Assembly (NCBI GenBank): GCA_044356305.1 | Contig: JBIKWM010000008.1 | Location: forward strand, 33,947-97,946 | Reading direction: 5' to 3' | DNA: 64,000 bases | Source of the DNA: Flavobacteriales bacterium | GTDB lineage: Bacteria > Bacteroidota > Bacteroidia > UBA10329 | Shown: one piece after another, positions 12,665-49,945 of the stretch | How positions within the stretch are numbered: position 1 is the stretch's first letter | Layout: the number at the start of each line of letters is the position of its first letter | Program-made: the position numbers and the translations under genes | Notes under the pieces: model-generated | Databases searched by the model: none | Told to the model about the DNA's origin: nothing | The model's input: only the letters and a program-made list of their open reading frames with translations

Positions 12665-13162
12665 TCAGAGTTCGTACAACGGCCTCTCACCATGACTTTC
12701 TAGCAACGTATTGAGTAAGGGTAGGGAATAGTAGCGCCCGCTGGTGATGAAGGCAGAGAAAAGTGGCCTGAGCTCAGTGATCAGACCTTTGTTTTTTGCT
12801 GCCACAAGAACGCCCAAGGTGCCAACGCATGAGATGCCGAGCGTTTCGGCTATGCGTCTGGCCTTTCTGTCATCAATCAACAGGAAGTCGGCCTCCATCT
12901 CCTTGCAGAGCATAACGGCCTCCGACTCGCCATCGTCCATCATGAAAGTGAGCTCATTGATGCCCTTCACCGCGCGCACCTTATCTTGGAAGAACGCATG
13001 AATGCGGTGATGGTGAGGGGTTGCGGGGTCAGATGTGACCTCGTGCCAAACGGCATCGGGGATCAGAATATGTGAGAATAGCGAAGGCAGAATATGTAGC
13101 CGGTCTATGATCGCCAATGAGAAAATGGGGCCAGAGTCTGCAACAACCTTCTGCCCACGCAT
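12665..13162 (-). CDS. DUF3368-type PIN-like toxin
   Basis: 165 aa. Partner of the upstream UPF0175 ORF, with a 1-nt spacing. Confidence 0.7.
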   Translation of the reverse strand: MRGQKVVADSGPIFSLAIIDRLHILPSLFSHILIPDAVWHEVTSDPATPHHHRIHAFFQDKVRAVKGINELTFMMDDGESEAVMLCKEMEADFLLIDDRKARRIAETLGISCVGTLGVLVAAKNKGLITELRPLFSAFITSGRYYSLPLLNTLLESHGERPLYEL

Positions 13163-31072: not shown

Positions 31073-32701
31073 ATGACGCTACGAACCGGATCAGCGATCA
31101 TACTCCTCACTCTAGCGGCTATCGGTGCTCAGGCACAGGGCAACGCTGCATCTGAGGTGCTGGTACGCAAGTTCTACCCCACTGCTAACGAGCAGCTCAA
31201 GAACGGGCGCTACCCTGCTGCCGCTCAGAATTTTGCTCAGATGGTCGAATCGGACCCGAAGAATGCCAACCTGAACTATAAGGCCGGTATGAGTTATCTG
31301 GGCCTTCCAGGACAGAAAGATAAATCTGTTCCATATCTGGAATTTGCGGTCACCGACATCAACGAGAAGTACAAGGACTCGCCCAATGAGCGCAAGGCCC
31401 CGGTAGATGCCATTTACCAATTGGCCCGCGCTTATCACATCACATTCCAGTTCGATAAGGCCATTGAGCACTACCGTAAGTTTGCCAATGTGGCCAAAGT
31501 GACCGATCAGGCCCAGTTGGATGAGCTGAACCGTCAGCTCGAGATGTGTGAGAACGGCAAACTGATTGCCGAGACGCCCGTGAGCGCCACCATCAGAAAC
31601 CTCGGGATCAAGCTCAACACTAAGTTTGATGAGTATGCACCTGTGGTGGATGTGACCGAGAGCGTTATGATCTTCACTTCGCGTAGGCCCACAGGCACAG
31701 GCGGTTTTCAGGACCCGGACGGGGAGTATTACGAGGACATTTTCATCTCTGTGAAAGAAGATACGCTATGGGGCCTGCCCAAAAGCATCGGAGGCAAAGT
31801 GAACACTGACGGGCACGAGGCCAGCATAGGCCTGAGCCCTGATGGACAGGAGCTTTTCATATACAGGGATGATTATGGCGATGGGAATATCTACGCCAGT
31901 CAACTCATCAGTGGCGAGTGGCGGGTGCCCGTGCGCCTCGGAGAGGCTGTTAACAGCACCTACCGCGAGACTCACGCGTCCGTTTCGGCCGATGGTCAGA
32001 CCCTTTATTTCACCAGCGACCGCCCGGGCGGGCAGGGTGGCATGGACATTTGGCGGGCGCGCAGATTGCCCACGGGTGATTGGGCCAGAGCAGAGAATCT
32101 CGGGCCACGTGTGAATACCAGATTTGATGAGGAGGCCCCGTTCATCCACCCGGATGGAAAGACGCTCTTCTTTAGTTCGAAGGGACATACGAGCATGGGT
32201 GGATTCGACCTGATGTTCACCATTTCGGATGATGGTGGTGCTTGGTCGAGCCCAATGAACATGGGCGTGCCCCTCAATTCGGCCGATGACGACTACTTCT
32301 TTGTCATGTCTCCCGATGGTAAGCGCGCCTATTATTCCTCGAGCATGAAAGGTGGGCAAGGAGGCAAGGACCTCTACATGATTTACCTCGAACGCGAAGA
32401 GACTCCGCTCACTGTTTACAAAGGTGTTTTCAGTCCTGATGCAAGCGGGAATCTGCCACAGAACGCCTCGATATCTGTGACCGATAACAACACAGGAGAG
32501 CTGTATGGAACCTATCGGCCACGTGCCGATAACGGGCGCTTCATACTGGTGCTGAATCCGGGTAAGGACTACATGATCACATACGAGGCCGATGGATTTG
32601 CTTCGCGGTCGGAGAAGCTGTTCGTGCCTGAGAACACGGCCTATTTCGAGATAAACAGGGCCATTCAGATGAATCCGATCACCCTCGAGGGCGGGCGTTG
32701 A
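31073..32701 (+). CDS. secreted TPR + TolB-like PD40 beta-propeller protein (cluster paralogue 1, no OmpA domain)
   Basis: Signal peptide. TPR-like N-terminus. PD40 repeats (DGQELFIY, DGQTLYFTSDRPGGQGGMDIW, DGKTLFFSS). C-terminal beta-sandwich. Confidence 0.8.
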   Translation: MTLRTGSAIILLTLAAIGAQAQGNAASEVLVRKFYPTANEQLKNGRYPAAAQNFAQMVESDPKNANLNYKAGMSYLGLPGQKDKSVPYLEFAVTDINEKYKDSPNERKAPVDAIYQLARAYHITFQFDKAIEHYRKFANVAKVTDQAQLDELNRQLEMCENGKLIAETPVSATIRNLGIKLNTKFDEYAPVVDVTESVMIFTSRRPTGTGGFQDPDGEYYEDIFISVKEDTLWGLPKSIGGKVNTDGHEASIGLSPDGQELFIYRDDYGDGNIYASQLISGEWRVPVRLGEAVNSTYRETHASVSADGQTLYFTSDRPGGQGGMDIWRARRLPTGDWARAENLGPRVNTRFDEEAPFIHPDGKTLFFSSKGHTSMGGFDLMFTISDDGGAWSSPMNMGVPLNSADDDYFFVMSPDGKRAYYSSSMKGGQGGKDLYMIYLEREETPLTVYKGVFSPDASGNLPQNASISVTDNNTGELYGTYRPRADNGRFILVLNPGKDYMITYEADGFASRSEKLFVPENTAYFEINRAIQMNPITLEGGR

Positions 32702-32796
32702 TAACTGGGGGAAATTACCTTACCCCGTATCCTTAAAATAATATCTTTGGCGCGCTCCTAAAAAGGGGCCTCATCTTTTTTTCACCTGCGCGACCT

Positions 32797-35700
32797 ATGG
32801 AATTGACCTTGGGCAAGAATCTGAACGGCATGCGCTGCATACTTAGCCTTTCTTGCCTGATTATCGGCTTGCCTCTCTGGGTGTCTGGTCAGCCCTTCGG
32901 TTCCGGAGAGTTCAAGACCAAGTTCATGAAGGCCGATGCCATGATCTATGACGGCCGGCATGAACAGGCGTTGCCATTGGTGATGGATCTGATAGCCACC
33001 GATTCTTCCAATGCCAATCTGAGTTTCATGCTCGGATCCTGTTATCTGTTCACGAAGCAGTATTCAAAGGCACTTTATTATCTCGACAAGGCGGTGCGCG
33101 ATGTCTCCATCTCGCATCAGGAAGCCAACCCAAAGGAGCGGAAGGCGCCAGGCATGGCGTATTTCTACCTAGGCAAGGCGCACCATTTCATCAACGAGTT
33201 CGATCAGGCCATATCAAATCTGTACAATTACCGTTCGTTCATCGATATGAACGATTACGCTGCATACACTGAGGTAAAGCGTCATATTGAGTATTCTGAG
33301 AACGCTAAGGAATTGGTGGAGAATCCGGTCAAGACCGATATCAAGAATATTGGCCCGACACTTAATACCAACTATCCGGAGTTCTCGCCAGTCATTTCGG
33401 CCGATGGGCAGACCCTCATATTCACTTCTAGGCGCGAAGGGAGTACAGGTGGTAAGCTCGACCAGAACGGGAAGTTCTATGAGGACATCTATGTGAGCAA
33501 AAGAGAGGGCGAAGATTGGAGCAAGCCTCAGAGCATTGGTCGCAATATCAATACTGATGGTCATGAGGCGAGTATAGGACTTTCTCCAGATGGACAGACC
33601 CTTTTCATCTACAAGGACGACAATGGCGATGGCAACATCTATGAGAGTTCGCTGATCAATAACGAATGGTCAACCCCTCGTAAAGTGGGAGGAGATGTGA
33701 ATACAAAATCGTGGGAGACACACGCCACCATTTCGGCCCGTGGCGATATGATTGTTTTTACATCGAATCGCGATGGCGGACAGGGTAAGCGCGACATATG
33801 GTTCTGCAAGTTGTTGCCCAATGGTCAATGGGGAGTGGCCCAAAATATGGGGCCGCTGATCAACACCCTTTATGACGAAGATGCACCTTCGCTATCGGCC
33901 GATGGAAACACATTGGTCTTCAGCTCGCAAGGGCACAATTCGATGGGCGGATTTGATATTTTCCGTACAGAGTTCGTTGATGGTGCATGGACAGCCCCTG
34001 AGAATCTTGGCTACCCGATAAATACTGCCGAGGACGACATCTTTATGGTCACAACCCCTGATGGGCGGTATGCTTACTACAGCTCCCAGCGCGAAGGAGG
34101 GGCAGGTGAGACAGATCTGTATCGGGTGAAACTCGATGTAAAGCGTCCTTCACTGCTAACAGTTTTCCGTGGCCTTGTCATAGTGCCAAACATGGATTTT
34201 GCTGGCACCAAGGTGGTTATGGATGTGCAGGATCAGGCATCGGGCCTCAGCATGGGGCAATTCAGGCCGAACGCCACTACAGGAGCCTATGTGTTGATTC
34301 TTGAACCGGGCATGAGCTACCGGGTGACCTACAGTGCGAGTGGGTATGGACCTGTGCAGAAGACAATCATGTCTGATGACATGAGTGCCTATGAGGAGAT
34401 AATGAAGGCGGTCGATCTGGAGCCAGTGGTATTTGGAGGCGAGCTTGAGGCACAGCTGAAAATGAAGCAGGATCTGGAACGCGAAAGGGCCGCGAACGAG
34501 CGCCTTTTGGCAGAGGAGAATGCGCGTCTGCAGGCTGCGTTTGAGGCAGCACAGGCCCAGGCAAAGGCGAAAGAGGAGGAAGAAGCGCGCATCAAGGCCG
34601 ATGAGCAGGCAAGCGCTGAGGCTCTTGCCGCTGAGGAGGCCAGAAAGGCTGAGGAGGCCCTGAGAGCCACAGAGGCCAAGCAGCAGCAAGAGCAGGCGGC
34701 AGAAACAGAGCAGCCCCAGCAGACCGAACCCCAGCCTGAGATTCAGCCTGAGCCGATAGCCGAACAACCTGTTGCGGTGGCGCCTCAAGAGAATGATGCC
34801 TTAGCCAAGAAGCGTGCGGCTATTGAGGAGATGCGCAAGCGGATGGCTCAGCAGGCAGAGGACAATGCCCATAACGAGCCTACGGAGGTAACTACCAAGG
34901 AGATTACGCCTACAGAGCAGCCAGAGCCTCAAAAGTCAGAGCCTGTTGCTGCGGAGGAGCCAGTTGTCGTGCAAGAAGCTGCAGCGGAGCCTGAGAAACA
35001 GCCTGAGAAACAGCCTGAGTCGGCAGTAGTGAGCGAGCCGGTTGAACAACCAGAGCCAGAATCTACGCAGGTTTCTCAACAGGAGGAGGCACGGGTTACG
35101 GAGCCGGTTATGGAACAGCAGCCAGAAGAAGTGGCTGTGGCCGAACCTGTGCAGAACCAGAAGTCTGATGCAGAGCGTCAGTTGGAGGAGAAGCGAATCA
35201 AGCTTCAGAGGCAGATTGACGATCTGAGGCAGAAACAACTGGGCAAGTCGCAGGAGCTCCAGAACGCAGCCGATGAGGCCGCACGACTCAAAGCGGAATC
35301 GGATGCCAAGGCACGTGAAGTGGAGGAGGCTAAGGCAAAGGCTGCAGAGGCCGAGCGTCAAAGGCTAGCCATTGAAGCAGAGACCAAGAAAGAGGCAGAG
35401 GCTATAGCCAAGGCTGAACGTGAAGCTCAGGAAATAGTCAAGTTGGAGCAGAAAGCGCATGCCGAAGCAGAGGCTAAACGTCTAGCAGACGAGAAGGCAC
35501 GGGAAGAAGCCGAGGCCAGGAAGATTGCCGAAGAGGAAGCCCGCATCAAGGCTGAAATGGAGGCTCAGCGCAAGGCTGAAGAAGCTGCACGTAAGAAGGC
35601 TGAGGCTGAGGAGAAGGCCCGGATTGAACGCGAGCGGATGGAGCAGGTGCTTGCTGAGCAGAGAATCAAGAAAGAGGAGGAGGAGAAGAGGAAGGCTGTT

Positions 35701-36438
35701 CTTGCTGAAGAGCGCAAGAAAGCCGAGGCCGAACGTCAGGAGACCATCAGAATTGAAAAGGAGCAGGCTCGGATAAAGGCGGAGGCAGCAAAAGCAGAGG
35801 CCGAGGCGGAGGCAATTGCGAGGCGGAATTCAGCGATAGAGGCAGGCACCATAGCTGAACTCAGGAAGATCAATCAGAAGTTGATCGATGAGAATCGGGA
35901 TATCAAGAAGCAACTGGCTGACATCAACGCGAAGTTGGATATGATCATCAATATACTCTCAGCAGGCAAAGGGGATGAGACATTCAGTGAGGCGGACCTC
36001 ACCGAGCTCAGCAAAAAAGGGAAGTTGGTACTCAATAATATCTTCTTCGATTACAATCAGGCCAGTTTGCGCCCCGAATCAAAAAAGGAACTCAATAAGC
36101 TTGTCTCGTTCTTGAAAGGCAATCCGGATGTGGCCATTGTGATAGGTGGGCACACGGATTCGCGTGGTAACGATGAATACAACATGAACCTGTCCCAGGA
36201 GCGTTCTGAATCAGTGAGCTCTTATTTGGTGAGTAGCGGAATTGATGCAAGTAGGCTCTCTGCCCGTGGATATGGCGAATCGAAACCGATAGCAAGGAAC
36301 GAGAATGTTGATGGGACGGATAATCCAAAAGGTCGCCAGCTGAACAGGCGCATTGAAATAAGTATAGTGGGTGCCGGCATGGATGATGTGGAGGTGAAGA
36401 AGATCAAAGTCCCTTCAGAACTTAAAGTAGTTGATTGA
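32797..36438 (+). CDS. TPR + PD40 propeller + ~550-aa E/A/K/Q/P-rich spacer + C-terminal OmpA peptidoglycan-binding domain (paralogue 2)
   Basis: Same N-terminal module as 31073. OmpA-C signature ...GGHTDSRGNDEYNMNLSQERSESV...NRRIEI. Confidence 0.85.
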   Translation: MELTLGKNLNGMRCILSLSCLIIGLPLWVSGQPFGSGEFKTKFMKADAMIYDGRHEQALPLVMDLIATDSSNANLSFMLGSCYLFTKQYSKALYYLDKAVRDVSISHQEANPKERKAPGMAYFYLGKAHHFINEFDQAISNLYNYRSFIDMNDYAAYTEVKRHIEYSENAKELVENPVKTDIKNIGPTLNTNYPEFSPVISADGQTLIFTSRREGSTGGKLDQNGKFYEDIYVSKREGEDWSKPQSIGRNINTDGHEASIGLSPDGQTLFIYKDDNGDGNIYESSLINNEWSTPRKVGGDVNTKSWETHATISARGDMIVFTSNRDGGQGKRDIWFCKLLPNGQWGVAQNMGPLINTLYDEDAPSLSADGNTLVFSSQGHNSMGGFDIFRTEFVDGAWTAPENLGYPINTAEDDIFMVTTPDGRYAYYSSQREGGAGETDLYRVKLDVKRPSLLTVFRGLVIVPNMDFAGTKVVMDVQDQASGLSMGQFRPNATTGAYVLILEPGMSYRVTYSASGYGPVQKTIMSDDMSAYEEIMKAVDLEPVVFGGELEAQLKMKQDLERERAANERLLAEENARLQAAFEAAQAQAKAKEEEEARIKADEQASAEALAAEEARKAEEALRATEAKQQQEQAAETEQPQQTEPQPEIQPEPIAEQPVAVAPQENDALAKKRAAIEEMRKRMAQQAEDNAHNEPTEVTTKEITPTEQPEPQKSEPVAAEEPVVVQEAAAEPEKQPEKQPESAVVSEPVEQPEPESTQVSQQEEARVTEPVMEQQPEEVAVAEPVQNQKSDAERQLEEKRIKLQRQIDDLRQKQLGKSQELQNAADEAARLKAESDAKAREVEEAKAKAAEAERQRLAIEAETKKEAEAIAKAEREAQEIVKLEQKAHAEAEAKRLADEKAREEAEARKIAEEEARIKAEMEAQRKAEEAARKKAEAEEKARIERERMEQVLAEQRIKKEEEEKRKAVLAEERKKAEAERQETIRIEKEQARIKAEAAKAEAEAEAIARRNSAIEAGTIAELRKINQKLIDENRDIKKQLADINAKLDMIINILSAGKGDETFSEADLTELSKKGKLVLNNIFFDYNQASLRPESKKELNKLVSFLKGNPDVAIVIGGHTDSRGNDEYNMNLSQERSESVSSYLVSSGIDASRLSARGYGESKPIARNENVDGTDNPKGRQLNRRIEISIVGAGMDDVEVKKIKVPSELKVVD

Positions 36439-36457: not shown

Positions 36458-39400
36458 ATGATGATGAATCTACGTGTTTCCCTTATCGGCCCCATTTTTA
36501 ATCTATTTTCATCCGCTTTTTCAGGATCGATGAAAGACCGTACCGGACGGTCAGAATCAATGCTTCAACCTCGACTGACGTTTAGCTTTTTCGTATTGAC
36601 CGCCCTCATGCTTGCCATGACCGGGCAGGGGTATGCGCAATCGCGGGATATCCGTCAGACCACTGAGGAGGAGATGAACCGCGAGATTAACCAGACCCCT
36701 GAGGAACGCGCAAAGGCACGTATCAGAGTCACCCCTAAAACCGCACAGGAGCTATACTATAACGGCAATTTCAGAGCAGCACTTGATGAGTTTCTGATCC
36801 TTTTGGCTAAGAATCCCACCGACCCCGACCTCAATTTCTTTATCGGTGCATGTTATCTGGAGAGCAACATTGATAAGAAAAAGGCCGTCCAATATCTTGA
36901 GTTCTCTGTATCACAGCCTAAGTATCCGAAAGAAGCCATCTATCAATTGGGTAGAGCTTACATGTTCTCTCATCGCTTTGATGAGGCCATCACAACTTTC
37001 AACAAGTACAAGGACATTCAACGCGGGAAGGAGGACAATATAATAACCGGGACACGGATGATTGAGATGTGCTTCACAGCCAAAGAACTTGTGAAGTACC
37101 CACGTGATGTGACGTTTGAGAACCTTGGCATAAACATCAATTCAGCCTATCCTGAGTACAATCCATTTATTCCGGAGGATGAGTCTTTCATTGTATTCAC
37201 AACTAAACGTCCGGATTGTTTGGGTCTACAATTGGATTATGATGGTTATAAGACTCCTGATATTTATCGTGCAAGAACTACTCGTGGTAGATTTTCCGAG
37301 GCGCGGAACATAGGTTCCTCGGTCAATACGGAATGGTATGAGGAGTGCGTTGGTCTATCAGCTGATGGTCAGGAACTGCTTGTTTACATCGACAATTTCG
37401 ATGGGTACGATGATATCTACAACTCGCCCCGCAAGGGCCGATTCTTTGATGAGTACTATTCTCTCGGGCCGAACATCAACACCGATGAAATAGAGACCAC
37501 AGCGAGTATGAGCACAGATGGTCAGCTGCTATTCCTGACCCGCGAAGTGGGTAAGGGAGTAACAGGGACTGATATTTATATGTCGCGCAAGCTGCCCAAT
37601 GGTACCTGGGCCATTCCGACACGTTTGCCAGATGTGATCAATACCAAGTACAATGAGGCGTTCCCGCACCTTGCCGATGACGGTAAGACACTGTACTTCG
37701 CATCTGAAGGCCACATGAGCATGGGTGGCTTCGATATTTTCACCACCGAGTATGATGAACTGACCGGCACTTGGTCAGTACCACGTAATGTCGGTTATCC
37801 GATCAATACGGTGGATGATGATTTTAATATCTCAATGTCCACCACTGGGCGCTATGGCTATGTCTCTCAGTTCAGGGAAGAGGGGTATGGCGAGCGGGAT
37901 ATCTATATGGTGACTTTTAAGGACACCGACCCGGTAGAGACCATTGTTCGAGGTTCAATCACCAATATAAGAGATTCGCTTAAGAATGATCCGAGATATG
38001 AGGTAGGCAATTTCCTTATGACCGTGCGTAACATGGACACCGATGAGTTCATCGGTTATTACCGACCTAATAAAGGCAGCAGCAATTATGCTCAAGTACT
38101 TGATCCCGGTGAATATTGCGTTTACGTTGAAGGGGAGTCTTTCTTTGACACATCTGCCGTTATTGAGGTTCTTGGGCGTGATGCACAGGTACGTGAACAG
38201 ATTTTTGACTACACACTGAGACCTGATCCTAATGCCAAGCGCAAGGGTAAGGAAAGCAAATGCCAGATTTATGCATTGAGTGGAAGTGTTGATGGCATGG
38301 CCAAACTGTGGGAAGTACCGAGTGGCCGACTTATCCTTAATCTGGATAACCGGAAGGAGGTTTCATCGGTTCAATTCTCGCCCAATGGGAAATATGCTGC
38401 AGCCAGTTGCAATGATGGTAGCATCAACCTATGGAACCTACCTGATGGCACGCCTAGCAAGACATTGTATGGTCACAAAGGACGTGTGAACCGGGTCGTA
38501 TTCACACCGAACAGCCGCTACATCCTGTCATGCGGAGCCGATTCCACGGTGCGCTCTTTCGATATCGCGACAGGTAAGCAGACGAATCTTTACATTGGCC
38601 ATGTGGGCAATGTGAACGATGTGACTGTTTCGTCTGACGGCAATTACCTCATTACGGTATCAGACGATGGGAACGTATTGATGTGGGACTTCAAGTCCAC
38701 TGAACTTGTCGGGGTTTATGATGGGCATTCAGGACCGGTTCGTAGCGCCATGTACTCGCCCTGTGGCAATTTCATCGTAACCGGTGGCAGCGATGGAAAA
38801 GCAATAGTGTGGAACATCACCACTGCCAAACCCGAGACCATCTTCTCATTACATGGCACAGATGTTACTTCGGTTCGAGTGTCGCCCGACTGTAGCACCA
38901 TTGTGTCAACCGACCGCAAGGGATTCACCTATTCCTGGGACAGGAAGCTGGGTAGTGTAAAGAACGCCATGCCGAGCAATCAGGCCGTGGCATCGTCATT
39001 TATCAGCAAAGACTCGCGCTACATTATCACCGGAGGCAAGGAGCGGGACCCGCGCGTGTGGGCTTTCGGCAATGGTGATCAGGTAACCACCCTGTTCGGC
39101 CATAAGGGTTATGTCAATGATGTGGCATTCTCTCCTTGCATCAAGTTCCCCGAAAAGGAAATTCCCGACATCAAACCTGCCGACCCAAAGGAGGTACAGG
39201 CACTCGAGGCGGAGGTTCAGAAGCTTGAGGAGGAACTGGCCAAGATGGAACAACTCAAAAAGCTCGGTTACGACCCCAGCCTCTTGGATGTTGACATCAA
39301 GAACACGAAGAAATTCAAGGTGGGCGATAAGATCATTCTTGAACGTATCTACTTTGATTTCGATAAGTTCAATATCCGCGATGAGTCTGTTGTGCAGCTC

Positions 39401-39718
39401 AATCAGTTGCTGCTGTTCCTTACCAACCAGCCGACTGTGATTGTAGAGATATCGGGCCACACCGATTCGCGCGGCACTGACGACTATAATGAAAAGCTCT
39501 CCCGCAACCGTGCAAAGAGTGTCGTTGCATGGTTGGGCGAACGGGGAATCCCGAGCAAAAGAACTGTGGCCAAGGGATATGGAGAACGAAAGCATATTGC
39601 ACCTAACGAAAATCCAGATGGGTCGGATAATCCTGAAGGCCGTCAGATGAACCGAAGGATAGAACTCACCATCATTGGGGTCGCGGGCGAGAAGATCATC
39701 ACAACCGAAAACAACTGA
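36458..39718 (+). CDS. TPR + PD40 propeller + 7-blade WD40 propeller + coiled coil + OmpA domain (paralogue 3)
   Basis: Likely true start ATG 36560 (MLQPRLTFSFFVLTALMLAMTGQGYAQ). WD40 repeats (LWNLPDG..., ...SCGADSTVRSFD, ...VSDDGNVLMWDF). OmpA-C ...SGHTDSRGTDDYNEKLSRNRAKSV...NRRIEL. Confidence 0.85.
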   Translation: MMMNLRVSLIGPIFNLFSSAFSGSMKDRTGRSESMLQPRLTFSFFVLTALMLAMTGQGYAQSRDIRQTTEEEMNREINQTPEERAKARIRVTPKTAQELYYNGNFRAALDEFLILLAKNPTDPDLNFFIGACYLESNIDKKKAVQYLEFSVSQPKYPKEAIYQLGRAYMFSHRFDEAITTFNKYKDIQRGKEDNIITGTRMIEMCFTAKELVKYPRDVTFENLGININSAYPEYNPFIPEDESFIVFTTKRPDCLGLQLDYDGYKTPDIYRARTTRGRFSEARNIGSSVNTEWYEECVGLSADGQELLVYIDNFDGYDDIYNSPRKGRFFDEYYSLGPNINTDEIETTASMSTDGQLLFLTREVGKGVTGTDIYMSRKLPNGTWAIPTRLPDVINTKYNEAFPHLADDGKTLYFASEGHMSMGGFDIFTTEYDELTGTWSVPRNVGYPINTVDDDFNISMSTTGRYGYVSQFREEGYGERDIYMVTFKDTDPVETIVRGSITNIRDSLKNDPRYEVGNFLMTVRNMDTDEFIGYYRPNKGSSNYAQVLDPGEYCVYVEGESFFDTSAVIEVLGRDAQVREQIFDYTLRPDPNAKRKGKESKCQIYALSGSVDGMAKLWEVPSGRLILNLDNRKEVSSVQFSPNGKYAAASCNDGSINLWNLPDGTPSKTLYGHKGRVNRVVFTPNSRYILSCGADSTVRSFDIATGKQTNLYIGHVGNVNDVTVSSDGNYLITVSDDGNVLMWDFKSTELVGVYDGHSGPVRSAMYSPCGNFIVTGGSDGKAIVWNITTAKPETIFSLHGTDVTSVRVSPDCSTIVSTDRKGFTYSWDRKLGSVKNAMPSNQAVASSFISKDSRYIITGGKERDPRVWAFGNGDQVTTLFGHKGYVNDVAFSPCIKFPEKEIPDIKPADPKEVQALEAEVQKLEEELAKMEQLKKLGYDPSLLDVDIKNTKKFKVGDKIILERIYFDFDKFNIRDESVVQLNQLLLFLTNQPTVIVEISGHTDSRGTDDYNEKLSRNRAKSVVAWLGERGIPSKRTVAKGYGERKHIAPNENPDGSDNPEGRQMNRRIELTIIGVAGEKIITTENN

Positions 39719-39723
39719 CAACC

Positions 39724-42700
39724 ATGCGCAGCACCGGCATAGGGCGAGTGTCAGCACATTTATTGGGCATAGCACTCCTTGGCTTCATTTCGTTTATTGC
39801 CCCACAAGTAGCATCAGCCCAGCCTGTTGTAGGAGAGGAGCGGCAGAGTGTGTCGAATATTCAAGGCCCCATTGAGATCAAGTGCTTCGTTAAGGAGCTC
39901 ATGAACACTATGAAAGGGGTGATTGTCACCATTTATGAAGATGCTGATGGATCGCGTACCAAACTGAATGAACTCCAGAAAATAGTCACCCCAGGCAATG
40001 GCCAGTTCACATTCAAGTTGAACATCAACAGGCTGTACATGATAGAGTACAGCAAACCGGGCTACACTTCGAAGAAGGTGGACTTTGATACCGATGTGAA
40101 GATGGCACGGCCTGAACATACCAAAGTGCCAACATTTGAATTTGAGGTGCAGATGGTAAAAGATCTTGATGGTCTGGCTTTTAAGAGTTCGGTGGCCAAG
40201 GTCTTCTATCACATCAAGCGAAATGAACTGGACTATGAGCTTGATTACTCCAAAGAGGAAATGTTGGAGGAAGAGCGCAAGATCAAGGAGTTAGAAGAGA
40301 AAAGGCGATTGGCTGAAATAGCTGCCCAGAAGAAGCTGGAGGTGGAGAATCAGGCCCTCTCAGCACGTGAAAAGGACCGGTTGGCGGCTGAGTCAAAGAT
40401 TAAGGCGGCCGTGCTGATGGGCTCAGACGAAAAGAAGGTGAAGGAGCAGTTGGTGAAAGTTTTCTCTGATGTCGATTCGCTGCGCTACAAAAAGGCCGAT
40501 GCCATGTATTTGGAGCTGCAGAAGGAGCGCCAGCGCACCGGTGGCAACAACGCAGCCATTAACTATGGCAGCATTTTCGATGCGGCTGTAAGGCTAGAGG
40601 ATAAGGTTGTGGCTGATAAGGCCGCAGCCGATGCCAAGAAGCAGGAGGAACTCAGGAAAGTAAAGACCGATGTGGTGCAGAAACAGCAGGAGGCTATCCA
40701 AAAGGAACAAGAGGCCCAGAAGCTGATAATGCAGAACAAGCTGGCACAGGCCACTGCTGCCGAGGATGCAAGGAGGGCGGCTGAGGAAAAGGCCAAGCGC
40801 GAAAGCGTGTACAATGCATTGCTCAATTCAAGCGGGAGCAAGGAAAAAGCCATTGCCAACCTGATGACGGTGTTCGCCAAGGGCGATGAATACAAGGAAG
40901 AGAAGGCCGAGGCCATGTACATGGCCTATGAGAAGGCCAGGCAAGGGGGCAAGACCTTGGCGAACATGAACTACAGCGACCTTTTCTCGGCAGCGCGTCA
41001 GGCCGAGGATGCGGCTGTAGAGAAAAAGTTGGAAGAGGAGCGCAGAAAGGGCAATGACAAGACCAACGAGATAATCAAATCGTTGGATGAGAAGAAATTA
41101 AAGGAGGAATCTGCCCAGAAAACAAAGATTGAGGCCGCACTTGCCATAGCCAAGAACGAGACCGAAAGAAAACAGGCCTTTATTGAGGCATTGCCAAAGA
41201 ACGACCCTTACCGTCAGCAGAAGGGCGAGGCCATGTATGCTGAATTCCAGAAGCAGCAGCAGGCTCTGAACACTGGTGGCTCGGCCAAAACGGGGATTGA
41301 CTTCGGTTCAATTTTCGGAGCAGCCGAGACTGCTGAGCTTACCATCAAGAACAAGGAAAAAGAGGAATTGGCCCAGGCAAAGCGCCAACAGCAGGATGCT
41401 ATAGAGTCAAAGCTCGAGACCGTGCGTTCCGAAAAGAGCAAGATGGCCCAGGAAGCCGCAACGGTTGCCCAGGATGTACAGAAACAGAAACTGGGCGAGG
41501 CTGCAAACGCCAAGGAGAAGAAGTTGGCTGATGCAATAGGTAAGGCTGAGGGCGACCGATCAAAGGCCATTCAGTCCATCATGTCGACATTTGAGAAAGG
41601 GACTGAGTACAAGCAGGAACGTGCCGAAGCCATCTATGACGCCTATCTTGCTGAAATAGTGCGGATAAAGAACTCAGGGAACACCACGACCAAAATCGAT
41701 TTCGGTAAGCTGTTCGGTGCAGCTGACAAAGCTGAACTGGAGGCAATAACCAAGCAGTATGAAGCCAAGAAGGCCGAAGAGGACCAGAGGTTGGCCAATT
41801 ACACGGCCCAGCGGACAGAGAAGGCCGTAGATCTGGCGCAGGTCAAGGCCAAGGAAGCTGAGGAGAAGGCCGCCACTGCCGCTGCGGATCTTGCCAAGAC
41901 CAAATCGGACCTTGAGAATGAACGCATCAAGCGCGATCTGGCGCTCATGAAGCAGAAGGAACAGGAGGAGAAGACCTTGGCGATGGAGGAAGCCAAGAGG
42001 GCTGCAGAACTGAGGGAACGCGAACAGGCCTCTATGTCTCAATCTGAAAAGGACAAATTAGCCGCTGCCGAGAAACTTAGAAAGGAGACCGAAGCTGCAA
42101 GGGCAAAGCTTGAGGCTGAAGAAAGACGCAAAGCGGAAATCGCACAGGCGGCAGAGGAGAAACAGCGACAGGCAGACCTTGCACTGCAATCGAAGGCCGA
42201 AAAGGAACGTCAGGCTGCTATGGACGCTCAGAAGAAGGAAGAGGAGAGACTACGTAAAGAGAAGGAACTGGCGGACGCCAAGGCCAAAGCGGAAGAGTCG
42301 AAGCGATTGGAGGCCGAGCGTGCTGAAGCTGAGAAGAAGCGTCAGGCAGAGATGGCTGCCGCAGAGCGAAAGAAGGCCGAGGAACTGGCCGCAGCCCAGA
42401 AGGCAGAACGCGAGAGGTTGCTTGCTGCCGAACAGGCTGAGAAGGACCGGTTGGCAGCTGAGAATGCTCAGCGCACAGCTGCTGAAAAGGCAGAAAAGGA
42501 CCGGATTGCAGCCGCGGAGCGCAAAAAGGCTGAGGAATTGGCCGCAGCCCAGAAGGCAGAACGCGAAAGGTTGCTTGCTGCCGAACTTGCCGAAAAGGAG
42601 AGGATTGCGGCTGAGAATGCGAAAAAGGCTGCTGAGGAGAAGGCTGAGAAAGACCGACTTGCTGCCGAGGCCGCCAAGAAAGCGGCAGACGAGAAGGCCG

Positions 42701-43890
42701 AACGTGACCGCATACTTGCGGCTGAAAAGGCTGAGAAGGACCGTATAGCAAAAGAAGCGGCTGACCAGAAGGAGCGTGAACGCCTTGCATTGGAGGAGAA
42801 GAAGAAGGCGGAGGCCGATCAGATTGCAAAGGCGGCCGAAGAGAAGCGCAGACTTGACGAACAGTTCCGTTCACTTATTCAGGCCGGTGACCTGGCTTTC
42901 ACGGCCAAGAACTATAGCAAGGCAAAGGACGATTATGCCAAGGCTGCGGCACTCAAACCCGATGACCGCGAACTGAAGAGCAAGATCGGCTCGACAGATG
43001 CCGAGTTGAACAAACTGGCCATTGCCGATGCAGCTGCCAAGGAGAAAGAGCAGAAATTTCAGAATCTGTTGAAAGAGGGTGATGAGCAGATGGCCGATGG
43101 CGAGTACCCATTCGCGCGCAACACCTATTTCAAGGCTCAAGAGATGAAGCCCAATGACCCTTCGGTGCGGGCAAAGATCAAACAGGCTGATGATGCCATT
43201 GCCGCGGCCACCAAGGCCCGCGAGGCAGAACAGGCCAAGGAACGTCAGTACATTGTGCTGATGCAGGACGGTGGAAAGGCCATGGACTCCCGAGACTATG
43301 TCACGGCCAAGAAGAAATACAACGATGCCCTGGCTCTGAAACCTGGATCGGCCGATGCGACCAAGAAGTTGAGCGACATCAAAGTCATAGAAGATCAGAT
43401 GGCTGCCGCGACCAAGGCAGAGGATGAGAAGAAGCGTCAGGCGCAGGAGGCATTTGCTCAGAAGCAGAAAGAGGAGGAGGAGCGTAAGGCTGCCATTGCC
43501 CTTGAACGTCAGAAGGCCCTTGGCGATATTACAAATGGCAATGCGCAGACCCAGCCTGCCGCAGGTGGTGCCCCGAGCTCGGCCGAGCAGGAGCGCCAGC
43601 GCAAGTTTGAGGCACTCAAGCTGCAGATTGAGGACATGAGCAGCAATGCTGATGAACGCAGGAGGATGTTCCTCTCAGAACTTGCCAAGCTTTATCCAGA
43701 GGGTGTCACCTATGAGGCGGTTCCCGGTTCGAACTACAAGTTGGACCGGTATGTGATAAACAACAAAGGCGTGGTGAACGTGTACGAGAAACGTACATGG
43801 GACTGGGGCGGTGTGTTCTACTTCAAGGACAACGGAGTGGCCATCACCGAGTCGCTCTACAACCTGGAGCTGAACCGATACAAGAAGTGA
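39724..43890 (+). CDS. giant secreted coiled-coil protein (E/K/A-rich, ~1000 aa helical) with N-terminal beta-sandwich and C-terminal TPR-like repeats
   Basis: Signal peptide. Four ~65-aa modules (...F.KG.EYK.EKAEAMY...). 51-aa tandem repeat AAERKKAEELAAAQKAERERLLAAE... x2. TPR-like KAKDDYAKAAALKPDD. Confidence 0.75.
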   Translation: MRSTGIGRVSAHLLGIALLGFISFIAPQVASAQPVVGEERQSVSNIQGPIEIKCFVKELMNTMKGVIVTIYEDADGSRTKLNELQKIVTPGNGQFTFKLNINRLYMIEYSKPGYTSKKVDFDTDVKMARPEHTKVPTFEFEVQMVKDLDGLAFKSSVAKVFYHIKRNELDYELDYSKEEMLEEERKIKELEEKRRLAEIAAQKKLEVENQALSAREKDRLAAESKIKAAVLMGSDEKKVKEQLVKVFSDVDSLRYKKADAMYLELQKERQRTGGNNAAINYGSIFDAAVRLEDKVVADKAAADAKKQEELRKVKTDVVQKQQEAIQKEQEAQKLIMQNKLAQATAAEDARRAAEEKAKRESVYNALLNSSGSKEKAIANLMTVFAKGDEYKEEKAEAMYMAYEKARQGGKTLANMNYSDLFSAARQAEDAAVEKKLEEERRKGNDKTNEIIKSLDEKKLKEESAQKTKIEAALAIAKNETERKQAFIEALPKNDPYRQQKGEAMYAEFQKQQQALNTGGSAKTGIDFGSIFGAAETAELTIKNKEKEELAQAKRQQQDAIESKLETVRSEKSKMAQEAATVAQDVQKQKLGEAANAKEKKLADAIGKAEGDRSKAIQSIMSTFEKGTEYKQERAEAIYDAYLAEIVRIKNSGNTTTKIDFGKLFGAADKAELEAITKQYEAKKAEEDQRLANYTAQRTEKAVDLAQVKAKEAEEKAATAAADLAKTKSDLENERIKRDLALMKQKEQEEKTLAMEEAKRAAELREREQASMSQSEKDKLAAAEKLRKETEAARAKLEAEERRKAEIAQAAEEKQRQADLALQSKAEKERQAAMDAQKKEEERLRKEKELADAKAKAEESKRLEAERAEAEKKRQAEMAAAERKKAEELAAAQKAERERLLAAEQAEKDRLAAENAQRTAAEKAEKDRIAAAERKKAEELAAAQKAERERLLAAELAEKERIAAENAKKAAEEKAEKDRLAAEAAKKAADEKAERDRILAAEKAEKDRIAKEAADQKERERLALEEKKKAEADQIAKAAEEKRRLDEQFRSLIQAGDLAFTAKNYSKAKDDYAKAAALKPDDRELKSKIGSTDAELNKLAIADAAAKEKEQKFQNLLKEGDEQMADGEYPFARNTYFKAQEMKPNDPSVRAKIKQADDAIAAATKAREAEQAKERQYIVLMQDGGKAMDSRDYVTAKKKYNDALALKPGSADATKKLSDIKVIEDQMAAATKAEDEKKRQAQEAFAQKQKEEEERKAAIALERQKALGDITNGNAQTQPAAGGAPSSAEQERQRKFEALKLQIEDMSSNADERRRMFLSELAKLYPEGVTYEAVPGSNYKLDRYVINNKGVVNVYEKRTWDWGGVFYFKDNGVAITESLYNLELNRYKK

Positions 43891-43916: not shown

Positions 43917-45842
43917 ATGCATCTGAGGTCGATACCACTCCTTTTCGTTTTCCTCAACATCACTGCCATAGCTTTCGGTCAAGCAGCCGATGATGGTGTG
44001 AAGGGCGCCACGCCACAGGCATTGGCCAAGAACTATTTTGAGATAGGTGACTATCGCAATGCGCTGAAGGAGTATCAGAAGCTGGTGGCCGAGAAACCCG
44101 AGGACCTTTTCTACAACTACCGCGTAGGTCTGTGCCACCTCAACCAGAACATTGACAAGAGCTGGAGCCTGCCCTATCTCCGCAAAGTGGTGGCCGATGC
44201 CAACAGCGACCCGGAGGCATTGTATGATATGGGCCGTGCCTTCATGTACAACGAGCAGTTGGACAGCGCTATCCTATTCTTCAACAAGTACAAGGGAAAG
44301 GTGAAGGATGGTGCGCGCCTGGTGGAGGCCACACGCAACGTGGAGTTCTGCACCCAGGCCAAGAAGCTGATGGAGAAACCGCTCAATGTGAGTTTCTACA
44401 ATCTTGGCAAGGACATCAACAGTGAGGGGCCAGAGTTCAATGCCTTTATCCCTGACGATGAGAGTTTCATTGTCTATTCTACCAAGCGCGACAAAGGGGT
44501 GATGGGCAACAACCTCGACTTTGACGGTTATAAGCCGGCAGACGTGTTCTGGGCCAAAGCCAAGGGAGGTGAGTTTGACAAGGCCAAAAGTGTGGGTGCC
44601 ACCATCAACACCGAATGGGTGGAGGAGATCACCGGCCTATCGGCCAATGGCGAGTACATGTTTCTTGCCATCGATAATGCAGAGGCCTATGATGATGTGT
44701 GGGTGACGGAGTTCAACGGGCGGCAATGGAGCAAGACCATCCCTTTCGGGCCTACCATCAACACCCAGGACCCCGAACTGGCCGCTTCGAGCTCGCCCGA
44801 TGCGCAGGTGCTGTACTTCTCGCGCCAGAGCTCGGCTGTTGAGGGTTTCGGTGGGTTGGACATCTACATGGCCAAGAAGCTGCCCAATGGCCATTGGAGC
44901 ACGGCCGTGAACCTGGGCCCTACCGTTAACACGCAGTACGATGACTCGTACCCACAGGTGTCGGCCGATGGGCGCACCCTCTACTTCAGCAGCATGGGTC
45001 ACAACAGCATGGGTGGCTACGATGTGTTCAAGAGCGAGTGGGACGATAAGTATCAGCGCTGGGGAAGGGCCGACAACATCGGGTATCCGCTCAACAACAC
45101 GATGGACAATTTCACCTTCTCGCGCACCGGAAACATGCGCTACGCCTATGTGGCGCAGTTGCGCAAAGGCGGGCTCGGTGACCTCGACATCTATCGTGTC
45201 ACATTCAACGACATCCCGAAGGAGATGACCGTTCTGGTAGGCAATATTGAGCTGTACAACTCTCCCAACAAACGAACCATCAACCTGCATACCTATACCA
45301 AAGACGGTCAGGTGAAGGTTTTCACCGATGAGTATCAGCCCACCGATGACCCCACTTGGACCTACAAGGAGACCAAGAAGGAGGCCATTAAGGATGGCGA
45401 GAAATATGAGATAACCATCATCGGGTCGTACAAGGGGCAGGTGCAGAAATTCACCCCCGAGAATTTCCCGAAGGATGTGGCGAACTTCAAATGGGTGGAT
45501 ACGCGCATCAGCAAGGTGAAGGTGCCCGTGGTGCCCACCAAGATTGAACCGGTGCCCTACAAGGGCATGAAGGAGCCCATCATCAGCATTGTGATAAAGG
45601 ACTATGCGGGCAAGACGGTGGGCAAGTACACCGCCAATCGCAGGTTGGGCCGTTTTGTCGCCTCGCTCGAGCCATCGGACCACGGGCTGTACACCGTCAC
45701 GATGTCGGCACCGGGCTACGAGACCACCGAGGAGAAGGTGAGTGTGGTGGGCATGGGCCAGTATAAGACCGAGATAAAGAAGACTTTCAAGCTGGTAGAG
45801 AAGGGCCTAACACTGCCCGCACCGGCCACCGCCCCCAAATGA
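43917..45842 (+). CDS. secreted TPR + PD40 propeller protein with C-terminal beta-sandwich domains (paralogue 4)
   Basis: Signal peptide MHLRSIPLLFVFLNITAIAFGQ. Same module order as 31073. Confidence 0.8.
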   Translation: MHLRSIPLLFVFLNITAIAFGQAADDGVKGATPQALAKNYFEIGDYRNALKEYQKLVAEKPEDLFYNYRVGLCHLNQNIDKSWSLPYLRKVVADANSDPEALYDMGRAFMYNEQLDSAILFFNKYKGKVKDGARLVEATRNVEFCTQAKKLMEKPLNVSFYNLGKDINSEGPEFNAFIPDDESFIVYSTKRDKGVMGNNLDFDGYKPADVFWAKAKGGEFDKAKSVGATINTEWVEEITGLSANGEYMFLAIDNAEAYDDVWVTEFNGRQWSKTIPFGPTINTQDPELAASSSPDAQVLYFSRQSSAVEGFGGLDIYMAKKLPNGHWSTAVNLGPTVNTQYDDSYPQVSADGRTLYFSSMGHNSMGGYDVFKSEWDDKYQRWGRADNIGYPLNNTMDNFTFSRTGNMRYAYVAQLRKGGLGDLDIYRVTFNDIPKEMTVLVGNIELYNSPNKRTINLHTYTKDGQVKVFTDEYQPTDDPTWTYKETKKEAIKDGEKYEITIIGSYKGQVQKFTPENFPKDVANFKWVDTRISKVKVPVVPTKIEPVPYKGMKEPIISIVIKDYAGKTVGKYTANRRLGRFVASLEPSDHGLYTVTMSAPGYETTEEKVSVVGMGQYKTEIKKTFKLVEKGLTLPAPATAPK

Positions 45843-46612
45843 AGCTGAACCTGACGAGGCCGTTGGCCTTTTTTGATCTGGAGACCACTGGCACTCAGGT
45901 GGCTGAGGACCGTATAGTGGAGATTTCCATACTCAAGGTGCACCCCGATGGCCGCGAGGAGGTGCGCACGCATCTGGTCAACCCCACCGTTCCCATACCG
46001 AAAGGAGCTACTGAAGTGCATGGCATAACGGACGATAAGGTGGCCAATGCGCCCACGTTTGCCCAACTGGCCGCTGAGCTGAAACAGTTTCTGAGCGACT
46101 GCGACCTGGGCGGGTTCAATTCCAACCGCTTTGACATACCCCTGCTGGTAGAGGAGTTTTACCGTGCCGGGGTGGAGTTTGAAATGAAAGGCCGCAGGAC
46201 CGTGGATGCGCAGGTGATATTTCACCGCATGGAGGAGCGCACACTGGGTGCCGCCATGAAATTCTACTGCGGCCGCGAGCTGGAAGGGGCCCACAGTGCC
46301 GAGGCCGACATACGTGCCACCTACGAGGTGCTAAAGGCCCAACTGGACCGATATGCTGAACTTAGGAACGATGTGGCCGAGCTGCACGAGTTCTCATCGC
46401 GCGGCAACAAGTTTGTGGACTTTGCGGGCCATGTGGTTCGCGATGCCGAGGGCACCGAGGTGTTCAATTTCGGAAAGCACAAGGGCCGCGCTGTGGCCGA
46501 GGTGTTTGCCAAAGAACCCTCGTACTATGCATGGATGATGGACTCGCAGTTCCCGCATTACACCAAGAAAGTGATAACCGAGATACGGCTGCGCGCACAG
46601 CAACAGGCATGA
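45839..46612 (+). CDS. DEDDh 3'-5' exonuclease (DnaQ/epsilon-like)
   Basis: Exo I FFDLETTG; Exo II FNSNRFDIPLL; Exo III HSAEADIRATYEVL. ATGA overlaps at both ends. Confidence 0.85.
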   Translation: MKLNLTRPLAFFDLETTGTQVAEDRIVEISILKVHPDGREEVRTHLVNPTVPIPKGATEVHGITDDKVANAPTFAQLAAELKQFLSDCDLGGFNSNRFDIPLLVEEFYRAGVEFEMKGRRTVDAQVIFHRMEERTLGAAMKFYCGRELEGAHSAEADIRATYEVLKAQLDRYAELRNDVAELHEFSSRGNKFVDFAGHVVRDAEGTEVFNFGKHKGRAVAEVFAKEPSYYAWMMDSQFPHYTKKVITEIRLRAQQQA

Positions 46613-47363: not shown

Positions 47364-48335
47364 CTACTCCCTTTGCACCACAAGTTTACGCACTGCCACG
47401 GCACCGTTCTCAAACTGTGCTCGCACCATGTACACCCCAATGTTAAGGCCACTTACATCTATCTCCCGCACCGCACCGCCATGGCTTTGCAGATCCCGCC
47501 CGCTCAGGTCATTTATGGCCACTGTGTTTATTCGCCTGTTGCTATTGTGGCTTATGGCCACAGTTGTTGTGGCGGGGTTGGGGTAGATATCAAAGCCATA
47601 CATTTCGCTGTCTTTGACACCGTTGGGTAGTTCTATACGCCTGACGGAAACATCGTCAATAAAGTAATATGCAATTCCAGAAATTATACTTGTGTCGTTG
47701 ATAACATCTGTATCCTCATCCGTACTAAAATTCCCGATGGTTAAAAAAGATTCAGCCCCACTGGCAACGTACAGTGCATCAAAATTATACCATAAACCAG
47801 ATTCCTGCATAAATTCAATTCCTGGCCCAATTATTTGAGGTGCCACAGGCAAGAGAGGAAAGCTGCCAGTATCGGAATAAACTGGTTGTGAAGAAAAATG
47901 CATACCGATGGATTTAATGGCAGGTGCAACGTTACATGACTTTGAAATATGCATTTTAACCCTATAAGTACATCCATAAATTAAGGTTTCCTTTAGTTTA
48001 TTCGAAACATATTCTCGGCCATTTCCTGACCGTGAATAAACAATGAGACCAATCATGCCATCACCTGAATTGGTCATGTTAACGTTACAATCCATTGCCG
48101 GAATACCCACATATGGATTCATTTCATTTGCACATAAATTAAAATAATCCGGAGTGCCAGTTGTTGGGTTGTACCAATGTAACAATTTATCCACTTCACT
48201 AGGTACAAAAGGAGGACTAATTTGAGTTGGACATTCATAATACTCCTCAAATCCACCATTAGGGACAAGATTGGGTTCTTGCGAAAACCCTTTATCCGCG
48301 GCCAACAATAGACCAATAATTATTATTGCTCTCAT
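47364..48335 (-). CDS. T9SS cargo protein, CBM4/9-like N-terminal domain, type-A CTD (duplicate copy 1)
   Basis: Signal peptide. QEPNLVPNGGFEEY start typical of CBM_4_9. C-terminal ...YPNPATTTVAISHNSNRRINTV...GVYMVRAQFENG. Confidence 0.75.
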   Translation of the reverse strand: MRAIIIIGLLLAADKGFSQEPNLVPNGGFEEYYECPTQISPPFVPSEVDKLLHWYNPTTGTPDYFNLCANEMNPYVGIPAMDCNVNMTNSGDGMIGLIVYSRSGNGREYVSNKLKETLIYGCTYRVKMHISKSCNVAPAIKSIGMHFSSQPVYSDTGSFPLLPVAPQIIGPGIEFMQESGLWYNFDALYVASGAESFLTIGNFSTDEDTDVINDTSIISGIAYYFIDDVSVRRIELPNGVKDSEMYGFDIYPNPATTTVAISHNSNRRINTVAINDLSGRDLQSHGGAVREIDVSGLNIGVYMVRAQFENGAVAVRKLVVQRE

Positions 48336-48820
48336 GGTGCCAAAATAAACTTACTCGTGATTCCTGAGATTTGAATAAAGTAAACCCCACCAGCAAAGCC
48401 GTTAAGTTCTAACTTAGTTTGGCCACAATTTAGAATATTACGCTCTATAACGTGACCTAAGGGATTAGTGATCACATATTCAAACTTCTCTTCTGATACG
48501 CAACCTTCAACTCCGACCCATACGTGACGAGTAGTTGGGTTAGGATATACTATGACCTTAATGGACGATTCATCATCGTCAGTCACAGGAACTAAGTCGT
48601 CTTGTCCTCTTCTTTCAGAAGGTGGTTCTGTCAATAACTCACATTCATTGATCCATTCCCTATGCACCAATGTATCACGAGCAGAAAGTACTGCCCTTGC
48701 CAGATAAACTGAACTTCCTGAATCAAGCGGGCAAGCCGATGCCAAGGATTCGAGCCATGGCAGATCGACACTGTCGGGCATGGTGTTCTCTGACCAATGT
48801 GTGATGTTATAGGCCATCAT
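48332..48820 (-). CDS. CTD-only ORF (T9SS sorting domain without signal peptide); possible gene fragment
   Basis: C-terminal ...VIVYPNPTTRHVWV...GGVYFIQI. No N-terminal signal. 4-nt overlap with the downstream cargo gene. Confidence 0.5.
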   Translation of the reverse strand: MMAYNITHWSENTMPDSVDLPWLESLASACPLDSGSSVYLARAVLSARDTLVHREWINECELLTEPPSERRGQDDLVPVTDDDESSIKVIVYPNPTTRHVWVGVEGCVSEEKFEYVITNPLGHVIERNILNCGQTKLELNGFAGGVYFIQISGITSKFILAP

Positions 48821-48859
48821 CCTGGTTAAGGTACGTTCAGCATCATAAACTACAGGTTG

Positions 48860-49804: not shown

Positions 49805-49945
49805 GGCACCAAAATAATTTTGTTGGTGACCCCTGAGATTTGAATAAAATACAATCCCCCCGGCCCGCGCGAGTGTTCCGTAGGACCACTCGTGTGGTGT
49901 GGAACACGATCGGTCTGTGACCGATCTAACAACTAGGCATTCCAT
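49805..49945 (-). pseudogene. degraded remnant of a second CTD-only ORF
   Basis: Reverse strand encodes ...GGIVFYSNL.., aligning with the GGVYFIQISGITSKF tail of 48332..48820. Flanking nt similarity exists (tgagatttgaataaa). Confidence 0.4.

Follow-up and report, generated by a model that had tools for sequence, protein, structure and literature searches.

PorE of Porphyromonas gingivalis (PG1058/PGN_1296) is a periplasmic outer membrane lipoprotein of about 670 residues, in which a TPR domain, a PD40-type beta-propeller of about five blades, a carboxypeptidase-regulatory-like domain (CRD) and an OmpA_C domain follow each other, the last two being nearly adjacent. In the crystal structure of PorE with peptidoglycan, diaminopimelate is held by the side chains of D576, N584 and R591 (PMC7192894). 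Mutation of the peptidoglycan-binding D576 and N584 abolishes the function of the protein, its OmpA_C domain is essential, and its propeller is likely involved in the binding of the outer membrane protein PorP (PMC12773672). The same order of domains was found in the protein studied here, the product of gene C (36458..39718, forward strand) in a 64,000-nucleotide stretch from a Flavobacteriales bacterium (assembly GCA_044356305.1, contig JBIKWM010000008.1, positions 33,947 to 97,946), which is called the window below. It differs from PorE in that a canonical seven-bladed WD40 propeller of about 300 residues and a helix stand between the CRD and the OmpA_C domain, in the lack of a lipobox, and in the position of its gene among tandem paralogues.

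A further relative, CHU_0125, comes from Cytophaga hutchinsonii and has 656 residues (TPR-PD40-OmpA_C, no WD40). Its loss leads to outer membrane leakiness or hypervesiculation, a phenotype which has been reported only for C. hutchinsonii. The TolB-Pal pair of Proteobacteria also brings together a periplasmic beta-propeller and a peptidoglycan-binding module of the OmpA_C type, and PorE has been likened to both TolB and Pal by Heath et al. TolB and Pal are, however, two separate proteins which contain neither WD40 nor TPR, and Pal is lipidated. Finally, Flavobacterium johnsoniae and other gliding Bacteroidota carry more than 20 non-lipoprotein PorE homologues per genome (PMC7192894, PMC12773672). 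Like the gene C product, these have many paralogues, a signal peptide that does not lead to lipidation, and peptidoglycan-binding residues which are conserved, and judged by its sequence the gene C product belongs to this group; unlike it, none of them has been reported with a canonical WD40 domain. The TPR-PD40-CRD-OmpA backbone is well known and occurs abundantly among gliding Bacteroidota; it is only the WD40 insert that is unusual.

An earlier note on this stretch had proposed a seven-blade WD40 propeller at 38270..39160, that is, residues 605-901. This segment lies inside the WD40 block delimited in the present analysis (residues 603-903, 38264..39166), and the three motifs which the note had quoted (INLWNLPDGT, LSCGADSTVRSFDI and TVSDDGNVLMWDF) are all present in the gene. 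The Pfam scan gave very strong matches: PF00400 scored 150.3 bits against a cutoff of 27 (E=5.8e-45) with four separately significant stretches, and several models of whole propellers also passed their curated cutoffs, among them Beta-prop_WDR3_1st with 170.6 bits against 154. With such scores the WD40 identity of the block is far beyond chance. Seven repeats of 41-42 residues could be distinguished, the c-strands of which end in KLWEV, NLWNL, RSFDI, LMWDF, IVWNI, YSWDR and RVWAF. A G/L-H dipeptide occurs in five of the seven units, and six of them carry W at the end of the c-strand (F in unit 2). The ring is closed in the velcro manner, the C-terminal GHKGYVNDVAFSP pairing with the N-terminal IYALSGSVDGMAKLWE, so that one WD40 blade is built jointly from the terminal segment (FGNGDQVTTLFGHKGYVNDVAFSP) and the initial one (IYALSGSVDGMAKLWE).

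A full-length AlphaFold2 model was built on 57 homologues, and in this model the WD40 block has a per-residue confidence (pLDDT) above 90 and consists of exactly 28 strands (model residues 569-857), which corresponds to seven blades of four strands each. Foldseek placed the block on 7bid, a seven-bladed designer WD40, with a TM score of 0.96, an rmsd of 1.3 Å and 30% identity, and on the WD40 of the bacterial PkwA (5yzv) with a TM score of 0.86 and an rmsd of 1.2 Å. Thus the seven-blade prediction of the earlier note was right. By sequence, the closest solved structures were 2ymu from Nostoc (6e-68) and PkwA from Thermomonospora (7e-52), followed by Apaf-1 and WDR5. The two bacterial proteins (2ymu from Nostoc punctiforme, PkwA from Thermomonospora curvata) have the same seven-bladed fold at 29-30% identity and an rmsd of 1.2-1.3 Å. 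PkwA, however, is a serine/threonine kinase that carries its WD40 at the C-terminus, whereas in the gene C product the WD40 lies inside a protein that is predicted to be exported and anchored to the cell wall. The identity between the blades of the propeller is just 24% (range 15-38%), which means that it is old and diverged and has not been amplified recently; in this respect it differs from the recently amplified, 'highly repetitive' bacterial WD40 proteins (PMC5587647).

The WD40 block is set in a backbone which reads, from the N-terminus, signal peptide, TPR, PD40 propeller, CRD, short helix and OmpA_C. A separate AlphaFold2 model of residues 62-595 (pLDDT 88.7, predicted TM score (pTM) 0.82) shows TPR-like helices, a propeller of about five blades and the CRD sandwich. 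The TPR-like helical domain occupies residues ~81-213 (36698..37096), its helices lying at residues 20-152 of that model with a pLDDT of about 90. The PD40-type (TolB-like) propeller follows at residues ~218-501 (37109..37960). Pfam PD40 scored 42.8 bits against a cutoff of 20.9 at residues 390-428, and five PD40-like motifs were found in this propeller by motif scan and direct reading. Its Foldseek neighbours are S9-peptidase, tricorn and five-bladed GH43/GH130 propellers and not WD40 domains, therefore the protein contains two different propellers, as had been claimed earlier. The CRD beta-sandwich (residues ~519-595, 38012..38242; strands at model residues 458-521) was recognised from the model, from its homology to PorE and CHU_0125 and from the alignments, and it ends in the conserved DYTLRPDPNA.

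Downstream of the WD40 block the earlier note had announced a coiled coil and an OmpA domain, and both have their counterparts. An amphipathic helix of about 26 residues (39185..39262; model residues 876-901), a candidate for a short coiled coil, carries the conserved LExEIxxLEKEL and is present in the long and the short orthologues described below. The OmpA_C domain lies at 39329..39682; Pfam OmpA matched it at residues 965-1055 with 64.2 bits against a cutoff of 27.2. D1003, N1011 and R1018 of this domain are invariant in the family alignment, and their spacing (+8/+15) is identical with that of the D576/N584/R591 triad of PorE. On the basis of this analogy, binding of peptidoglycan by the OmpA_C domain of the gene C product seems probable.

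The gene, 36458..39718, is one open frame of 1086 codons without interruption. Across 38200-39300 the coding frame contains no stop codon while the two alternative frames contain 10 and 23, and neither N bases nor long homopolymers occur there. The listed start is probably too far upstream, the true one being M35 (36560) or M25 (36530). These are favoured since the orthologues start 96-129 nt past the upstream gene, compared with 19 nt for the listed start, and since the first 24-34 codons (36458-36559), upstream of M25/M35, are not conserved among the orthologues. The N-terminus, as read directly, is a Sec-type signal peptide (36560..36640, MLQPRLTFSFFVLTALMLAMTGQGYAQ|SRD, within the context …LTALMLAMTGQGYAQ|SRD) with a predicted cleavage at GYAQ|SRD; QSRDI after this site is conserved across the orthologues, and no Cys of a lipobox stands at or near it. 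No type IX secretion system (T9SS) C-terminal domain was found in the protein. The gene C product is therefore probably an exported, soluble periplasmic protein which is not lipidated. The earlier note had described a single secreted protein that combines two propellers with a peptidoglycan anchor. This description stands as far as both propellers and the anchor domain are concerned, but 'secreted' should be replaced by 'exported to the periplasm', because of the Sec-type signal peptide, the OmpA_C domain and the lack of a T9SS C-terminal domain.

The NCBIfam alignments to PorE and CHU_0125 span residues 94-577 of the protein. CHU_0125 (NF053607, OmpA-like outer membrane integrity) is the best family match to its N-terminal 480 residues with 269.1 bits, far below the cutoff of 620, and T9SS_PorE (NF052230) scored 223.5 bits against a cutoff of 600. 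The homology to both families is clear from the sequence. Since the protein is below both curated cutoffs and lacks the lipoprotein signal of PorE, it was classified as an equivalog of neither.

The distribution of the fusion was studied by a homology search of 5.8 billion proteins. The PD40+WD40+OmpA fusion was found in about 60 protein clusters from NCBI, JGI, ENA and Logan assemblies (996-1108 residues, 61-95% identity, some on contigs of 100-290 kb, the longest of 287 kb). The carriers form one clade of uncultured Flavobacteriales/Bacteroidia from metagenome-assembled genomes (MAGs, for example GCA_021739695.1) and metagenomes, and no cultured carrier was found. Several are already in NCBI with automatic annotation, for example MCF8275996.1 ('OmpA family protein [Flavobacteriales bacterium]') and MFT4523950.1 ('WD40 repeat protein/outer membrane protein OmpA-like…'). 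Since the same fusion is encoded by a single reading frame in about 60 clusters from independent assemblies, an erroneous joining of a separate WD40 gene can be dismissed; this, together with the open frame, disposes of the frameshift that the earlier note had named as the alternative. Its word 'unusual' applies to the WD40 insert, which is confined to one clade, and not to the backbone, which is well known from PorE and CHU_0125. In the loci compared, cultured Flavobacteriaceae have PorE-like genes without WD40, and a WD40 in front of an OmpA anchor was not mentioned in the literature searched on PorE, CHU_0125 and prokaryotic WD40 proteins. A search with the WD40+helix+OmpA part among representatives was dominated by giant multi-propeller WD40 proteins, and both domains were spanned only by two members of the family (P0121, P0057). 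A contig scan with exact-peptide WD40+OmpA patterns recovered no fusion and picked up mostly generic OmpA_C domains of Flavobacteriaceae.

The search also returned short relatives of about 745 residues which lack the WD40 and are 59-70% identical to the long form over the common parts; GCA_022072225.1 is an example of a MAG without the insert. The two forms differ by one clean indel of about 300 residues between the CRD end, DYTLRPDPNA, and the FPEKE…LExEIxxLEKEL helix. The order of genes around both is RecR, GT2, 2-oxoacid dehydrogenase E2, the five genes A-B-C-D-E, RNase T and FAA hydrolase; since the long and short forms occupy the same place in it, they are positional orthologues. In a more distant WD40-less locus, used as outgroup, the flanks differ and B-C-D-E is kept. 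In a neighbour-joining tree of 678 shared columns, the 49 sequences with WD40 are monophyletic (200 of 200 bootstraps) and nested among those without it, therefore the insert was gained a single time. The WD40 was gained as a self-contained cassette of about 300 residues. The identity of the orthologues to the query is 49% in the WD40 block compared with 73% in the N-terminal and C-terminal flanks alike, so the insert has evolved faster than the rest of the protein.

The site of insertion appears to be a permissive one. The spacer between CRD and OmpA_C has about 10 residues in PorE, about 40 in the short orthologues, about 340 in the gene C product, about 550 in the proteins of the gene B type and about 900 in the relative P0110, and such variability across the superfamily fits this assumption. 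At the junctions the long forms read 'IYA(M/L)|SGS…WD40…|FPEKE' (window ~38264-38275 and ~39167-39184), and the short forms of the sister clade (P0062-P0077, P0079) have 'TYA(M/L)' followed by '(Q/E)(I/F)PKVEE'. Since YA(L/M)SGS is a typical WD40 b-strand, the 'TYA(M/L)' stub may have been left behind when the insert was precisely deleted again, or, with equal likelihood, it may represent the linker from before the insertion. As for the source of the cassette, the nearest WD40 proteins outside the family are at most 33% identical and are metagenomic or from Bacteroidota. The best of them, P0124 and P0130 (P0130 from a Bacteroidota MAG), have N-termini resembling signal peptides, which makes exported WD40 proteins of the phylum a plausible donor pool. 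Two tandem OmpA_C domains were noticed in the relatives P0089 and P0098; the precomputed label 'DUF748' on them reflects no more than a sub-threshold overlap with the OmpA region.

Gene C is the third of five co-directional genes (A-E), all of which encode proteins with a signal peptide and without a lipobox, as read from the sequence. The gaps are 95 nt between A and B, 19 nt between B and C, 5 nt between C and D and 26 nt between D and E, and the RNase T gene follows E at -4 nt; such short distances suggest an operon. Gene A (31073..32701, forward strand, 542 residues) encodes an exported TPR-PD40-CRD paralogue without OmpA and is syntenic in four of the loci compared (L001, L002, L084, L085). 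The product of gene B (32797..36438, forward strand, 1213 residues) is a PorE-like paralogue with OmpA_C, recognised by profile matches; each of the five loci compared has it in synteny. Between its CRD and OmpA domains lies a low-complexity or helical spacer of about 500 residues, rich in E, A, Q and K (E 22%, A 20%). This long spacer occupies the same insertion site as the WD40 in the gene C product.

Gene D (39724..43890, forward strand), directly downstream of gene C in every locus examined, encodes an exported, mostly helical protein of 1388 residues rich in A, E and K. No Pfam or NCBIfam match was obtained for it. At least three copies of a unit of about 100 residues ending in [FY]G[SK][IL]F[DGS]AA could be recognised (at residues 281, 527 and 660), together with a 460-residue A/E/K-rich stretch of TolA-like composition and a small globular domain at the C-terminus. 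Its homology search was flooded by coiled-coil word matches and gave eight matches, all of them hypothetical proteins from MAGs. Gene E (43917..45842, forward strand, 641 residues) codes for another exported TPR-PD40-CRD paralogue without OmpA, assigned by profile matches and synteny. The end of gene E is overlapped by 4 nt by a gene for an RNase T/ExoX-like exonuclease (45839-46612, forward strand). Of the five other loci, four (L001, L002, L084, L085) likewise have this gene and that of an FAA hydrolase behind the cluster, a neighbourhood which is conserved but functionally odd for an envelope cluster. The terminator-like hairpins, at 32754 upstream of gene B and at 45856 downstream of gene E, are all weak.

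We propose that the gene C product is a peptidoglycan-tethered scaffold of the periplasm, a PorE/CHU_0125-like paralogue in which the WD40 serves as an accessory docking platform that was captured once; we estimate the probability of this reading at roughly 65%. The protein would be exported by the Sec pathway without lipidation, and its OmpA_C domain would bind non-covalently the diaminopimelate stem peptide of peptidoglycan. The helix of about 26 residues may act as a spacer or a dimerisation element, while the TPR domain and the PD40 propeller could bind protein partners, as in PorE. The WD40, which was inserted where the spacer separating the CRD from the helix/OmpA_C module varies naturally, would most likely provide a further rigid platform for protein docking near the cell wall. 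The ligands of canonical WD40 domains are in the great majority of cases proteins or peptides. The WD40 is regarded as an accessory and not a core part, since the orthologues without it keep the same operon, and its faster divergence suggests a partner which is lineage-specific or fast-changing. Together with B, D and E, the gene C product may form an envelope-tethering or scaffolding complex, in which B would be a second peptidoglycan-binding PorE-like protein, D a giant helical component and E a PorE-like protein without the anchor.

Several observations speak against this proposal or weaken it. No partner of the WD40 was identified. The predicted hotspots of its top face have a conservation of 0.56 compared with a domain mean of 0.73, a mean that is inflated by the buried core residues; with this reservation, the difference may speak against one universally conserved ligand, although N720, N887, D736 and T/N678 are conserved. 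The lengths of the neighbouring genes B and D do not track the presence of the WD40, D having 1158-1388 residues in both classes. The full-length AlphaFold2 model has a pTM of 0.39 and does not fix the mutual placement of the domains, and the scan for promoters and terminators performed no better than on shuffled sequence. In addition, the export of the protein and its binding to peptidoglycan are predictions from the reading of the sequence and from homology.

A more far-reaching possibility, which we regard as tentative and rather unlikely, is that B-C-D-E make up an undescribed peptidoglycan-anchored periplasmic machine of uncultured Flavobacteriales, built from two PorE-like proteins with an OmpA_C anchor, a third without one and a giant helical protein of 1150-1390 residues with a novel repeat of about 100 residues. 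The WD40 would have been grafted onto this machine once as a new hub of interactions and possibly excised again, precisely, in the sister lineage, in which the 'TYAM' stub is left. If this were true, matched versions of the same machine with and without WD40 would exist in nature.

The cluster could instead be an outer membrane integrity system of the CHU_0125 or Tol-Pal kind, with a WD40 which binds a non-protein ligand (glycan, lipid or peptidoglycan fragment) or has a sensory role. The best NCBIfam match is indeed to the CHU_0125 family, the deletion of CHU_0125 causes hypervesiculation in C. hutchinsonii, the long A/E/K-rich helical regions encoded by genes B and D have a composition similar to that of TolA, and there is variation on the top face of the WD40. 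The CHU_0125 score is, however, far under its cutoff, no TolQ, TolR or TolA genes are adjacent to the cluster, and a non-protein ligand would be at odds with the general binding habit of canonical WD40 domains. We consider this explanation, taken as a whole, improbable. Concerning the role of the cluster only, we lean slightly towards general envelope tethering (CHU_0125/Tol-Pal-like, PMC5891637) rather than towards T9SS or gliding, because of the higher score of the CHU_0125 model, the lack of lipoproteins in the cluster and the TolA-like helical regions in the products of B and D.

It is quite doubtful that the gene C product is the true PorE of the organism, which would anchor the T9SS to peptidoglycan through a PorP-like partner and use the WD40 as a T9SS-specific adaptor. 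TPR, propeller, CRD and OmpA_C do come in the same order as in PorE, the propeller of which is likely involved in PorP binding. The window moreover encodes several genes for Por_Secre_tail (T9SS cargo) proteins and a SprB-repeat protein, from which it follows that this member of the Bacteroidota possesses a T9SS. But CHU_0125 outscores T9SS_PorE, which remains well under its own cutoff, no lipoprotein signal is present whereas PorE is an outer membrane lipoprotein, and the gene stands in a tandem array of four paralogues. Among the open reading frames scanned in the window no PorP/SprF gene was found, and the WD40-less orthologues keep the same operon.

Two further explanations of the fusion were rejected. 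A recent horizontal acquisition of the WD40 from a eukaryote is very improbable: fungal HET-E-like and kinase WD40 domains do appear among the weaker matches and WDR5 and Apaf-1 are good matches in the PDB, but the best sequence matches among solved structures are bacterial, the nearest relatives outside the family are metagenomic or Bacteroidota proteins of at most 33% identity with N-termini resembling signal peptides, the block shows no anomaly of composition (GC 0.51, GC at third codon positions 0.58, matching the surrounding genes), and the age of the insert equals that of the entire WD40-bearing clade. A frameshift, a chimeric assembly or an error of gene calling is refuted by the stop-free frame and the roughly 60 clusters; nothing was found in favour of it, and the closure of the ring needs both ends of the WD40 in one chain.

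Some other features of the window deserve mention. The SprB-repeat protein (13566-15320, reverse strand, 584 residues) also contains DUF7619 and a T9SS C-terminal domain and may be a surface adhesin of the gliding type. Three small proteins in tandem (323, 162 and 361 residues; 47364-49945, reverse strand) each end in a Por_Secre_tail sorting domain, and their genes sit in the part of the window with the lowest GC content (0.42 at 48-50 kb). The reading frame at 6701-8911 (forward strand) encodes a C-5 cytosine DNA methylase in fusion with an Arm-type DNA-binding domain; the GC content around it (~6-10 kb) is ~0.50 compared with ~0.60, and it may belong to an integrated mobile element. A DUF3368 protein is encoded at 12665-13162 (reverse strand). 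Scans for tRNA genes and Rfam families gave no match in the window.

In summary, it is well supported that the WD40 fusion represents a clean insertion of a cassette into an envelope scaffold and not a new kind of system. The practical value of the finding is limited, since all of the components are familiar ones and none of the carriers found is cultured. Most of the PorE-like TPR-propeller-CRD-OmpA proteins are functionally unexplored, and the clade described here also bears on exported bacterial WD40 proteins, the characterised examples found (PkwA, 2ymu) not being envelope proteins. In this family the spacer before the peptidoglycan anchor accepts an entire folded seven-bladed propeller, while the rest of the protein and the operon are left undisturbed. 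The orthologues with and without the insert offer a natural comparison for asking what is brought to the cell wall by an added docking domain.

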